The notes beneath the pieces were generated by a model, which was given only the letters and a program-made list of their open reading frames with translations, was not told the DNA's origin and did no database searches. This document shows positions 1-41,141 of a stretch of DNA of 46,410 bases, piece by piece (the stretch's first letter is position 1; the number at the start of each line of letters is the position of its first letter). The stretch covers positions 1-46,410 of IMG/VR virus record IMGVR_UViG_3300010376_000055. One strand, 5' to 3'. The translations under genes and the position numbers were made by a program. Origin of the DNA: a virus (lineage: Duplodnaviria; Caudoviricetes).

Positions 1-246
1 CTGCTTCGCCTTGTTCGATTCGGAAGTGATTTGCTGGATGGCCGGCGCGTTGGCTCTTGCGAGTGCTGCCGGGTCACCCGAGGAGAGTTTGCCGTAGTAC
101 GAAGTGGCCTTTTCGAGCCCTGGGAGTGACAGATTGAAGAGCGTCGAGCCCTCTTTGGCCGACTGCTGGCCCGTGGCTGACATCACGTTGGCGAGGTTCG
201 CCTGTGCTTGTTGGAGGTAATCGCTCTCCCCGCTTGGTTTTCCGAT
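1..246 (-). CDS. Probable DNA-ejection/internal virion protein, N-terminal part (runs off the window); predicted ATC start
   Basis: Open frame (M)GKPSGESDYLQQAQANLANVMSATGQQSAKEG...ARANAPAIQQITSESNKAKQ, A/Q/S-rich and helical. GAGGT lies 8 nt before ATC at 246. In-frame TAG at 279-277 with no ATG/GTG/TTG between it and the ATC. Position after tail and GNAT genes is typical of podovirus ejection proteins. Confidence 0.6.
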   Translation of the reverse strand, partial: MGKPSGESDYLQQAQANLANVMSATGQQSAKEGSTLFNLSLPGLEKATSYYGKLSSGDPAALARANAPAIQQITSESNKAKQ

Positions 247-3747: not shown

Positions 3748-3822
3748 TGGTTCCGGGGGCGGGACTCGAACCCGCGACCTGAGAGTTATGAGCCCTCCGC
3801 GCTGCCACTGCGCTACCCCGGT
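3748..3822 (-). tRNA. tRNA-Met(CAT), initiator (fMet)-like
   Basis: Full cloverleaf ACCGGGG TA GCGC AGTGGCA GCGC G GAGGG CTCATAA CTCTC AGGTC GCGGG TTCGAGT CCCGC CCCCGGA A CCA; A1xA72 mismatch, A73, GGG at 29-31, encoded CCA. Confidence 0.92.
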
Positions 3823-13359: not shown

Positions 13360-13750
13360 AGCCATAGGGACGGCCTTCCCTCGGGGATCTACCCCTAGAG
13401 TGGCCCTGAATTCTTAGTGTGTCTTACAGCTTCTTAAACCAGAGAGAGACTTAGTCTTTGAAAGAGGGGTTCTACGCCCTCATCCCCATGGGACCAGGAC
13501 GCAGCCGTCTGTGATGGGATCAACTACCCACTCGTTGCCTGGAATTTCGTCTCGTCTCAGCTTTATCGGTGCCAATGCCCGTAAGCTGTGAACCTCAAGC
13601 GGACCGTTGTTTTTCGGTAATGGAGTTCCGCGAACCAACCGTCTTGCCTCCGAAGGCAGGAATAGACACACGTTAGCGCGTCACTCGGAAGACGGGATGA
13701 TGTGCGTGATCTAACACGCTGCAAAATCCGTTCTCCCAGATTCCGTGACT
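13360..13750 (-). ncRNA. Candidate ~390-nt structured non-coding RNA
   Basis: TTGTCG-17-TATTCT promoter (13784-13756); no credible ORF; many hairpins (TGCCT-TCGG-AGGCA, CAGCTT/AAGCTG, CCAGG/CCTGG, GTTAG/CTAAC); 3' end uncertain. Confidence 0.5.
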
Positions 13751-13811
13751 TGCGCAGAATAAATCGTCAGATTTAATCCGACAATAGCAAAATGTGGACT
13801 ATAATTTTTTT

Positions 13812-13912
13812 GTGGGCGGCCCCGCCTACGCGCGCTGCTCCGGACCCGGGTTCCGTGACAAGTTCCCTTCCTGAGAGCCCGCCCACAAATCCCCGCGAAA
13901 GCGGGGTTTTTT
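13812..13912 (+). ncRNA. Candidate ~100-nt small RNA
   Basis: TATAAT at 13800-13805; closing stem GTGGGCGG/CCGCCCAC; terminator CCCCGC-GAAA-GCGGGG-TTTTTT. Confidence 0.65.
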
Positions 13913-14795
13913 ATTGCTCGGCCATTTGCAGGTTGGGATCCTCGATCGCTTCCAGAAACATATTCGATATGCGGACTCCGAACTCGTAGCGGGCTTGGAA
14001 GTATTTCGCGAGCCCTGGATTCCTTCCCTCGCCGTCCTTCGAATATGCGAAGCTGAGCGTCTTGAACAGGGGATACAGCAGGAACGGATCGGGGATCAGG
14101 AACCCGTCCCCCAGTCCCATCTTGCCTGGCTGGCGCTGCTGGTACACGAGCTCGATCGGCGTCGTGTTGTTCGCCCTCGGCCAAATCCCGAACTGGAGCA
14201 AGCCGGTCTTGTCGCGGAAGTACACCTTGGGCCCTACGGCGGCCTTCAGTTGCCAGCGGTAGTCCGTCATGTCGAGATTGGCCTGAGACGTTTCCCTCAG
14301 CGGGTAGTTGTTCACGGCCATGCGCTCCGGAACCATGCAGTCTGAGGGCAGATTGCCGTTCTGCGCAGTCGGCAGCACGGTGATATCCGCGATGTTGTAA
14401 ACCAGAGGGCAGGCCGTAAGGAAGTCGTTTACGGCCGTAGACAGGTATGTCAGCATTTCATCCTGAGTGAATATCTGGTCCTGATTGGCCCGGTAGGGGA
14501 ACGTGGCGCCGACGATCGGTTCGCCGGCTGGATGCGCGTTCACGAAAACAGCGGTGAACGAGGTCCCTGGAACCACAGCCGTAATCGTGACCACTTCAAG
14601 AGTGCTTACCGTGGTTCCCACGCAAAGCTGCGCGCCCACGTACATCGCTTCATCCCAAACCGGAACAGTCTGCGAACCGACTCCGATGCCGCCCACAGGA
14701 ACCGACTGGTTCACCGGATTCTGAATCAGCTTGTAGCTGGCATCCGTCAGGAGATCGTTTGCGATCAGGAATCCGACACCTTGAACGACTGGCAT
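13911..14795 (-). CDS. Head-tail adaptor / tail tubular A-like protein
   Basis: FTQDEMLTYLSTAVNDF, LPSDC, GPKVYF...FGIWP, IPDPF...AYSKDGE; leaderless-type start. Confidence 0.65.
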   Translation of the reverse strand: MPVVQGVGFLIANDLLTDASYKLIQNPVNQSVPVGGIGVGSQTVPVWDEAMYVGAQLCVGTTVSTLEVVTITAVVPGTSFTAVFVNAHPAGEPIVGATFPYRANQDQIFTQDEMLTYLSTAVNDFLTACPLVYNIADITVLPTAQNGNLPSDCMVPERMAVNNYPLRETSQANLDMTDYRWQLKAAVGPKVYFRDKTGLLQFGIWPRANNTTPIELVYQQRQPGKMGLGDGFLIPDPFLLYPLFKTLSFAYSKDGEGRNPGLAKYFQARYEFGVRISNMFLEAIEDPNLQMAEQ

Positions 14796-14833
14796 GCAAT
14801 CATTCTCAGCCGCTTGAGCTTAGGCGTCCACGA

Positions 14834-15123
14834 GAAAAGCCGCCCCAACCACTGGCGGCTCTTCCGAATACGACGGAGGAATCAATTAAAGCGACCATAG
14901 CACAAAAGCCATTCCCCGAATACTGGAATGGCTATCGTGCAGGTTTCCATCACCAAAGAAGTTACCAAGACTATAACATGAAAAGGCTGCTCGCCAACCA
15001 CTCGAGCAGCCTGTCTCCCTTTGATCACAGCATCGTTAAGTGGACTATAACACGAAAGCCGCCCAAGTTCTGAGCGGCCTTCGTTCCTCAAAGGAGTCGC
15101 AGTGTCAACCTGCCGAGATTGTA
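14834..15123 (-). repeat. Tandem array of four promoter/variable segment/terminator units (candidate sRNA cassette)
   Basis: -10 boxes at 15123, 15049, 14975 and 14899 (period 74, 74, 76), three with extended TG; each followed by 25-32 unique nt, then a GC hairpin and T-tract. Confidence 0.75.
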
Positions 15124-15600
15124 CTACGATCCGAACGCGAGCTTCACGCTCGAAAGAACCGGAACCGGAACCACGGGTGTAACTGTTACCGCCTGGGTGT
15201 CGCTGAAGGTCTTGCCGTCCGGCGTGGTCACCGTGCCAGTGATGTTCGCCGTGCCGGCTGCATCTGCGGTAACCGTCGCTGTGATGCCGTCCGCGTTCAG
15301 CGTTACTGCCGCGACCGCTGAATTGTCGGTTGAGTACGCATAAGTCGACCCTGCCGGGATTGCGATCGGAGACCCGTTCTGATCGAAACCCTGCAGTTCT
15401 GCCGTTGTCGTCTGGCCTGCGACCAGAGACGTGCCGCCCAATACAAACGTCATAATCCCTCGCTCATTGAATGGCCATGTCGGCCAAAATCGGTGTTGAA
15501 GGTAGGTCCTCGTCAGAAAGCTGAGCTTCACGCTCGCAAGCCGCTTCCTGTGATGGTGCCTCATAACTGCATTCTCTTCCTCAAATGCGAAATCTTCCAT
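15124..15600 (-). CDS. Ig-like (Big_2-type) domain protein
   Basis: YSTDNSAVAAV...ATVTADAAGTANITGTV; start uncertain (15600, 15564 or later). Confidence 0.7.
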   Translation of the reverse strand: MEDFAFEEENAVMRHHHRKRLASVKLSFLTRTYLQHRFWPTWPFNERGIMTFVLGGTSLVAGQTTTAELQGFDQNGSPIAIPAGSTYAYSTDNSAVAAVTLNADGITATVTADAAGTANITGTVTTPDGKTFSDTQAVTVTPVVPVPVLSSVKLAFGS

Positions 15601-40379: not shown

Positions 40380-40600
40380 GGGATCACTACCGGGGAACCG
40401 TCTGTGCGTACGCCCTTCATCTCGCCGTTCAGGTAGACGTTGGTCTCGATCCGGTAAGAGCAGCCGGTCTCAGCGTTGGTGCATGAGTACTCGAGATGCG
40501 TCACCCCGCGTTTGTTCTTGATGATTTTGGGTTTCAAAACGGTTCCGCACTTCTGACAGATTACGGGGCTTGCTATCAATGGAGCGTGGTCTGGAAACAT
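40376..40600 (-). CDS. Small Zn-finger protein
   Basis: CQKC...CTNAETGC; GGAGGAG SD; overlaps the 3' extension of the deformylase frame. Confidence 0.65.
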   Translation of the reverse strand: MFPDHAPLIASPVICQKCGTVLKPKIIKNKRGVTHLEYSCTNAETGCSYRIETNVYLNGEMKGVRTDGSPVVIP

Positions 40601-41141
40601 CGTTCTCCTCCGCGCGAGCTTGCCTCGCGGTTTTCCAATCGTTGAACTTGGTCAGCACTTCTCGTCGTCTCCTGTCCGGAATGCGATCGATGAAGAACGT
40701 TCCGTTCAGGTGATCGATTTCGTGCTGCATGATGCGCGCCGACATCAGCCGGAACGTGTAGGGCTTTTTCTTGTCTGGGAATTCAAGCGAAGCGGCTTCA
40801 AGGTCTACGTACTCTAATCGGGGAACCATGCAGAGATTACCGGCTGGGGGGATACTCAGGCATGCCTCTAAGCCGTCAATCTCTTTTCCGTACAGCCGGG
40901 TGATCTCCGGGTTGATTAGGGTTATGACCGATTCATCGTCAAGCTGGGCCATGACCACCTGCTTGAAGATACCGATCTGGGGAGCCGCAAGCCCTACTCC
41001 TCCGAACTGGCGTATCGTCTCGAACATTCGAATCGCCAACTCCGGCAAGCTATCGTACTCCCAAGGCATAACTGGTTCAGATACCACATTGATCATGGCT
41101 GGCCCGTATATGAGAACCGTGGCCCTAACTGGTACTTCCAT
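40470..41141 (-). CDS. def: Peptide deformylase
   Basis: All three motifs present: GVGLAAPQIG, EACLS, QHEIDHLNG. Confidence 0.93.
   Translation of the reverse strand: MEVPVRATVLIYGPAMINVVSEPVMPWEYDSLPELAIRMFETIRQFGGVGLAAPQIGIFKQVVMAQLDDESVITLINPEITRLYGKEIDGLEACLSIPPAGNLCMVPRLEYVDLEAASLEFPDKKKPYTFRLMSARIMQHEIDHLNGTFFIDRIPDRRRREVLTKFNDWKTARQARAEENDVSRPRSIDSKPRNLSEVRNRFETQNHQEQTRGDASRVLMHQR

Follow-up and report, generated by a model that had tools for sequence, protein, structure and literature searches.

A four-unit array between structural genes of a soil phage is likely an unusual set of small RNA genes

The window analyzed here is the whole of a 46,410-nt phage record that is 48% complete, with about half of the genome missing. 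Its source is a soil podovirus-like phage, half assembled, and its minus strand encodes a terminase, a portal, an Mx8-like major capsid protein, and virion genes. Between two of the structural genes stand four interlocked promoter-leader-terminator units on the minus strand (14830-15126), and these raise the question of what the array makes and with what its products might pair. A sequence-only reading had proposed that segments of the array are antisense to translation-initiation regions, AUU- and AUC-type starts included, and that the RNAs silence specific host or competitor mRNAs, possibly that of infC. The parts of the region, taken in the direction of the minus strand, are as follows.

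15124..15453, minus strand: gene for an Ig-like structural protein, the upstream flank (phrog_215; RibLong match below cut-off)
15118..15126, minus strand: U0 promoter, -10 TACAAT with no TG extension; a consensus match only, overlapping the stop of the Ig-like gene
15080..15111, minus strand: U0 leader, +1 A at 15111; the complement has an SD, 5 nt, and GTG, and two small hairpins are predicted over the anti-SD
15050..15079, minus strand: U0 terminator hairpin (15057-15079) with a U tail that enters the next -10; predicted by folding, z -3.8
15044..15052, minus strand: U1 extended -10 promoter TGTTATAGT, fused with the U0 tail; a sequence pattern
15012..15037, minus strand: U1 leader, +1 A at 15037; without an anti-SD, best pairing inside a CpxR/OmpR-like gene
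14979..15011, minus strand: U1 terminator hairpin (14985-15011) with U tail; predicted by folding
14970..14978, minus strand: U2 extended -10 promoter TGTTATAGT, with TTGGCG 16 nt upstream, within the U1 hairpin
14934..14963, minus strand: U2 leader, +1 A at 14963; the complement has AGGT, 4 nt, and ATC, a weak SD
14903..14933, minus strand: U2 terminator hairpin (14907-14933) with U tail; predicted by folding, z -4.3
14894..14902, minus strand: U3 extended -10 promoter TGCTATGGT; a sequence pattern
14861..14887, minus strand: U3 leader, +1 A at 14887; predicted single-stranded 5' end, anti-SD UCCUCC
14830..14860, minus strand: U3 terminator hairpin (14838-14860) with U tail, the end of the array, with no -10 afterwards
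13911..14795, minus strand: conserved virion structural gene, the downstream flank (phrog_399; 225 homologs)

Every unit follows one plan: six bases separate a -10 hexamer from an A, a leader of 26-32 nt that varies between units comes next, and a GC hairpin with a T tail closes the unit. The A, which we take as +1, stands exactly 7 nt past the -10 hexamer in all four units (15111, 15037, 14963, and 14887), and the period is uniform at 74-77 nt. At the three junctions, the T tail leads straight into TG-n-TAT(A/G)GT, the promoters of U1, U2, and U3 being of the extended -10 type. A hairpin, a T run, and TGnTAnnnT follow one another in this way three times in the window, every one inside the array, versus once in 20 codon-block-shuffled windows combined. 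The predicted RNAs are 55-62 nt long (∼60), with folding z-scores from -1.6 to -4.3 (-3.8 for U0 and -4.3 for U2) and with the 5' ends of U2 and U3 predicted to be open; the T tails are short, at 3-5 T. The stems differ in sequence from unit to unit with their pairing preserved, and the hairpins have their ends and part of the loop in common: the loop AGUGGUUGG occurs in both U1 and U3, and U0 and U2 have a related one. One GGA per unit lies near the hairpin, mostly outside the loops. The four leaders are unrelated to one another; the units have 56% mean column identity, and the longest repeat within the array is 15 nt in two copies.

Judged from its letters, each unit has its own promoter, an intrinsic terminator, a length between 50 and 150 nt, and no ORF, as an sRNA gene should, and we consider the array likely to be an unusual set of such genes. 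No credible plus-strand gene or promoter overlaps it, as cis-antisense RNAs would demand, and no plus-strand promoter was found near it. Rfam gave no match to the array at the gathering level and, by E-value, just weak chance matches; a BLASTN search against phages and plasmids returned nothing better than E 3-4.

Several other elements lie in the same neighborhood. The structural gene behind the array has its ATG 6 nt after a -10-like hexamer (14795-14807, minus strand), as do several relatives, and from this sequence it is likely leaderless; genome-wide, the relatives show no enrichment of leaderless spacing, with 43 cases at 6 nt versus 26-47 at other spacings. An 18-nt hairpin-like repeat is found on both sides of the Ig-like gene (15139-15156 and 15523-15540). 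On the plus strand, positions 13778-13916 hold a promoter (CCGACA-16-TATAAT), a structured RNA of ∼105 nt (z -3.3), and a strong terminator; this element has no Rfam match and adjoins the end of the structural gene, where the relative L021 carries an array of its own. The stretch 13447-13641 is non-coding, is 70% identical over 203 nt to loci L002, L003, and L022, and is probably a conserved structured RNA. Farther away are a single tRNA-Met(CAT) (3748-3822, minus strand), versus clusters of 24-29 tRNAs in four relatives, and a peptide deformylase gene (40470-41096, minus strand). A conserved virion gene at 1-246 (minus strand) has an ATC start, and its orthologs in relatives start with ATT, GTG, TTG, or ATG; the SD of this gene sits within a small hairpin in the window and in each relative. 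The hairpin-held SD and the odd starts suggest a conserved translational restraint.

The build is not confined to this phage. Its relatives, recovered by an alignment scan of viral contigs where single-protein scans recovered none, are soil and peat phages of ∼100 kb (among the related loci, L019 is the window's own contig). None of the nine related genomes examined whole, of 10, carries the array, nor do other related loci except L021, and the array site is a variable insertion point among the relatives. L021, whose flanking gene is 61% identical in amino acids, carries an array of three such units on the other side of the same structural gene, on the opposite strand and with other leaders. 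The +1 A lies at the same distance in the two L021 units that have a clear promoter, and the hairpin loops are not common with those of the window. A different non-coding element of ∼300 nt lies elsewhere in L021 (6170-6450, plus strand), is common to L059 and L041, and has a promoter upstream with its -35 inside a palindrome. No array variants were present in the contigs of sequencing run X1, and those of X2 do not cover the array.

Scans of IMG/VR with the junction pattern gave no further soil-phage array among the matches listed. The same build stands behind the lysins of Streptococcus phages (L123, L133, L153, L217, and L235) and Staphylococcus phages (L131, L157, L172, and L177), and also in L503 and L507. 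These post-lysin arrays reach six interlocked units, exchange units between phages, and are partly common to the S. thermophilus phages DT1, 2972, and Sfi21. Rfam gave no match to their units, and a self-target was lacking in each of four complete Streptococcus and Staphylococcus phages. One Staphylococcus unit gave 15 matches in 151 Bacilli genomes, below the control count, and the complement of this unit is an opposite-strand promoter motif. The uniform period, the intact promoters, and the different leaders in the two soil-phage arrays point to selection on the RNAs.

In which host such RNAs would act can be approached only through the genes of the phage. No prophage relative was found in GTDB, and homologue searches with the window's deformylase and LuxR-type protein indicated no host. 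In three genomes of the candidate host order, the LuxR-type gene reaches 46-47 bits, compared with 32-39 bits in two further Acidobacteriota genomes and 29-35 bits in four unrelated genomes, with no match in a fifth of the latter; these scores weakly favor Acidobacteria as the host phylum. The candidate order, that of G043, is one that we take to be Terriglobales, judging from IF3 sequences. Hfq is present in all three genomes tested of this presumed host order, where it may bind the RNAs.

The leader complements hold the motifs from which the idea of start-site targeting arose, and the letters are as reported. The complement of U0 reads AAAGGAG (15090-15096), 5 nt, and GTG TCA ACC from 15102; that of U3 reads GGAGG (14875-14879), 5 nt, and ATT (14885-14887); that of U2 reads AGGT (14941-14944), 4 nt, and ATC ACC AAA GAA from 14949; and U1 indeed has no SD-start pattern. 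The description of the array as antisense to initiation regions accordingly fits U0 and U3 in form, U2 weakly, and U1 not at all. The AUU placed at the 5' end of the U3 RNA is present as ATT, but its last T faces the promoter-fixed +1 A, and because that A is common to all units, AUG fits the U3 complement as well as AUU does.

With SD-start criteria set post hoc (a start of NTG or ATH, 4-9 nt past the SD), an SD of at least 5 nt plus a start occurs in two of the four units, U0 and U3, with P = 0.0008 by mononucleotide shuffle, 0.0025 by dinucleotide shuffle, and 0.0029 against random window segments. A loose 4-nt SD raises this to three of four (P = 0.0006-0.0023 with the same three controls); U2 qualifies only in this form, for which the single-unit chance is 7-18%. 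Canonical starts only leave one of four (U0, P = 0.02-0.05). The L021 leaders show the pattern in none of three units, and the pooled values are P = 0.007 (2/7) and 0.012 (3/7). All four complements are also open coding frames (FLKGVAVST, SPFDHSIV, QVSITKEV, and PNTTEESI). The anti-SD of U0 is predicted to be folded into a small hairpin and that of U3 to be largely open; from these motifs, occlusion of ribosome-binding sites by the array RNAs is possible for U0 and U3.

Our preferred reading, to which we give about even chances, is that the host polymerase would make a separate RNA from each unit, ending at the hairpin, whose free leader would pair with an mRNA encoded elsewhere and block ribosomes or trigger decay. 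Transcription would start from the extended -10 promoters with a sigma-70-type host polymerase and would terminate at each hairpin, with the U tail also serving as the upstream portion of the promoter that follows. Hfq may then bind the U tail, both stabilizing the RNA and helping it to anneal. By this prediction, the unpaired 5' leader would bind a host mRNA in trans and reduce what is made from it, either through ribosome occlusion (possible for U0 and U3) or through a duplex within the coding sequence that leads to cleavage. The proposal that these RNAs silence host or competitor mRNAs gains from the sRNA anatomy and its recurrence; its infC part is unsupported, and no recurring start-site pairing was found in the genomes searched.

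CRISPR mini-arrays and crRNA-like regulators also have a regular period and variable segments between structured elements, as the array does with its 26-32-nt segments. Unlike a CRISPR array, it has no near-identical repeats, has a promoter and terminator for each unit, and is accompanied by no cas gene anywhere in the window. Closer parallels are the trans-encoded phage sRNAs lambda PreS, VP882 VpdS, P1/P7 c4, and BTP1 STnc6030, among which c4 blocks translation around the ribosome-binding site and PreS and VpdS use Hfq (accessible text of PMC12197685). Like these, the array RNAs would be short and protein-free, and theirs pair with host or phage mRNAs; unlike these, which in that text are single genes, the array has four unrelated leaders (three in L021) that are interlocked and have candidate targets only (PMC12197685). 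The words "tandem" and "array" are absent from the accessible text of PMC12197685; the supplementary table of 38 uncharacterised phage sRNAs that belongs to this review could hold such units. The FopS small RNAs of Bacteroides likewise come in several copies and are connected with polysaccharide and envelope genes, but they are host-encoded paralogs from another phylum, whereas the array leaders are not paralogous and have no Rfam match (PMC11697453). No description of such arrays was found in a literature search confined largely to the main texts of openly available papers, nor in the accessible parts of PMC12637031 and PMC2864571.

Ribosome occlusion would call for start sites complementary to the leaders. 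In 181-251 genomes from the likely host order, in nine related phages, and in the window itself, no such target recurred. Within the window, the reported absence of a target was borne out by an ungapped wobble search, the best scores of which (9-12) are at chance level. The U3 SD-spacer-start 13-mer has 43 exact matches in 38 of 251 genomes versus 3 for its control, an excess as expected for an RBS-like word; in these 251 genomes, the matches at gene starts belong to unrelated genes, none recurring between genomes and none infC. The 13-nt seed of U0 gave 16 matches versus 10 for the control, none at an SD-led gene start, and the exact U0 17-mer gave 10 matches in GTDB, scattered over phyla and again none at an SD-led start. 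The U3 22-mer with up to 3 mismatches gave two matches in 151 Acidobacteriota genomes, neither a start. The check that the sequence-only reading had called for, of the leaders against start regions, returned no RBS pairing above shuffles in infC starts, in those of the sequenced half of the phage and of its relatives, or in inferred-host starts.

One candidate of this kind was considered and rejected. The SD-ATG of a solo cas1 in two element copies in G358 pairs with U3 at -27.8, and the 17 other parsed cas1 loci reach only -6.7 to -17.4 (19 of 30 loci parsed, of which some windows may miss the start), so that the pairing is likely due to chance. The two copies are inverted, casposon-like elements with a solo Cas1 of ∼510 aa (G358:C1:2808000-2834000, L551-L552), and homologs of this Cas1 were found in 27 of the 201 candidate-order genomes.

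The RNAs might instead cover start sites of the phage itself, in the half of its genome that is missing here, or of close competitor phages. The contig is 48% complete, the U0 and U3 complements resemble real start regions, and the top start-site pairings of U0 include two virion-gene orthologs in the relatives G001 (-29.0) and G002 (-28.7), both of which start with GTG and have the SD enclosed in a hairpin. The window's own ortholog, however, pairs with U0 at only -21.5; across 2294 canonical and 728 alternative start regions from the nine relatives and the window, no leader did better than its shuffled versions; the exact U0 16-mer has nine matches in IMG/VR, seven of which lie within a single unrelated helicase, with no match at the start of a soil-phage gene; and the lack of self-targets in the four complete Streptococcus and Staphylococcus phages tells in the same direction. 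We regard targets of this sort as rather improbable.

Pairing in trans with host mRNAs, as we prefer to read the array, may also fall inside coding sequences, and it is there that the longest pairings were found (20-mer matches rescored with G-U allowed). Leader 20-mers with up to 3 mismatches were matched to 181 candidate-order genomes with a reversed-sequence control, and matches were counted by eye: 28 versus ∼60 for U0, 21 versus 12 for U3, 61 versus 27 for U2, and ∼80 versus 9 for U1. The contexts inspected were those of all U0 and U3 matches, 30 of the 61 for U2, and 37 of the ∼80 for U1. The excess, which appears on both strands, stems from codon-like composition, and the candidate stretches described below were picked after the fact.

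Nucleotides 3-21 of U1 pair near codon 190, at the motif PFDRSID, with one orthologous response regulator in 6 of the 181 genomes, with duplexes of -34 to -38 kcal/mol versus -47.6 for a perfect one. The best NCBIfam matches of this regulator are CpxR and OmpR, both below cut-off. Chance would give 0.15 matches of 19 pairs (fourth-order Markov, 181 genomes), and the six matches are orthologs and so amount to one event; an 18-nt match in G262 with a non-pairing transition is about as close as that of U1, as judged by eye. Nucleotides 2-25 of U3 form 24 contiguous pairs, 4 of them G-U (-40.8), in one of the 181 genomes (G336), near codon 150 of a melibiase/PKD gene directly upstream of a TonB-type receptor; 0.009-0.076 such sites are expected by chance under the same model. 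Unit 3 of L021 has an exact 18-mer match (0.049 expected by chance) that extends to 21 contiguous pairs with wobble, in the 3' end region of an asparagine-synthase-type gene within a glycosyltransferase cluster (G330), which we read as encoding a surface-polysaccharide amidotransferase. This gene makes up 6 of the 30 loci retrieved out of 60 matches to the unit. U0 and U2 have no credible target among the 181 genomes, and in the three best genomes, the other two L021 leaders did not exceed the control.

The longest duplex of U2, 23 pairs with 0.014-0.15 expected, falls within an Ig-like gene on the non-coding strand. Because this wrong-strand duplex is equally long and rare, the pairings of U1, U3, and L021 unit 3 are leads only, and each of the three candidate partners would sooner prove a coincidence than a target. 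As leads, they would point to host envelope remodeling, for example against superinfection. None of the three comes from a genome flagged as unpublished. We hold as tentative, and on balance doubtful, the wider picture in which phages of several phyla carry swappable batteries of antisense RNAs, which here would silence host envelope functions, namely a CpxR/OmpR-like regulator, a sugar-uptake locus, and, for a relative, a capsule amidotransferase, by pairing with coding motifs or start sites and so provide a protein-free, multiplexed means of takeover or superinfection exclusion.

The cassettes themselves, and not the RNAs, could be what is maintained: the units may be PeSL-like cassettes without their genes, or stacked insulating terminators between structural modules, with the RNA as a by-product. 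PeSLs (promoter-early stem-loops) of the T4-like phages RB49 and phi1 are also repeated fusions of a terminator hairpin and a sigma-70-type promoter that occupy variable sites as swappable cassettes, joining promoters to terminators and shuffling cargo (accessible text of PMC2839356). In the same text, PeSLs end in an SD and a start codon, flank ORFs, and have a -35 box; unlike them, the array has a 26-32-nt cargo without an ORF, no sense SD-ATG, and three of four promoters of the extended -10 type (PMC2839356). The variable insertion point, the patchy distribution of the array among relatives, and the weak target evidence speak for this explanation. It leaves unexplained why two independent arrays should have a uniform period, intact promoters, and different leaders, and four promoters are superfluous for insulation. 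We give it a small chance.

Smaller still, in our judgment, is the chance that the RNAs are protein decoys, namely Hfq, CsrA-type, or polymerase sinks in which the leader sequence has little weight. VpdS of phage VP882 does compete for Hfq (accessible text of PMC12197685), each RNA has a U tail and one GGA near its hairpin, and the loop AGUGGUUGG of U1 and U3 has its related form in U0 and U2. The loops differ, however, from those of L021, the single GGA is mostly outside them, no Rfam family is matched at the gathering level, and a decoy has no need of four different leaders.

The original appeal of the locus came from infC, and it is this proposal that did not hold up. In E. coli, infC has an AUU start codon, and translation from leaderless or non-canonical starts is opposed by IF3; U3 (or U2) would occlude the AUU or AUC start of the host infC, lower IF3, and favor phage genes that are leaderless or start with AUC or AUU. 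A motive could be seen in the ATC-start virion gene at 1-246, the leaderless-looking gene behind the array, the tRNA-Met(CAT), and the deformylase, and in Acidobacteriota the usual infC start is GGAGG followed after 5-7 nt by ATT, ATC, or ATA, which is the generic shape of the U3 complement. We fetched 79 Acidobacteriota infC loci, parsed 74, and made 40 shuffles per leader; the set includes two loci from G011 and G060, genomes flagged as unpublished, and the outcome is independent of both. At these 74 starts, shuffles did as well as or better than the best duplex in 5 of 40 cases for U3, 10 of 40 for U2, 19 of 40 for U0, and 2 of 40 for U1, and the best U3-infC duplex reaches -21.2 versus -35.6 for a perfect one. 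No leader pairs with the infC starts better than its shuffles, none of the 43 exact U3 13-mer matches is infC, the AUU depends on a promoter-forced +1 A, and leaderless spacing has no genome-wide enrichment; infC is very improbable as the target. Hardly credible is a last explanation, that the SD-start motifs are plus-strand starts of tiny genes of 62 aa (ATT 14885) and 26 aa (GTG 15102): both frames are open over those lengths, but there is no nearby plus-strand promoter, there is no homolog in the related loci and genomes (best E 0.38), and the 62-aa frame crosses three hairpins whose T tails are all minus-strand.

Pattern searches across phage genomes can recognize the grammar of the array, in which a terminator tail is fused to the next -10 and is followed by a +1 A and a short leader that varies, and the S. 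thermophilus dairy phages that carry the same build offer a direct test system. If our preferred reading of the units as trans-acting antisense RNAs is true, each leader would name a host gene that is worth silencing to the phage, and the array would be an RNA-only route to multiplexed host control. It would also provide a first handle on the conflict between phage and host in uncultured soil Acidobacteria.
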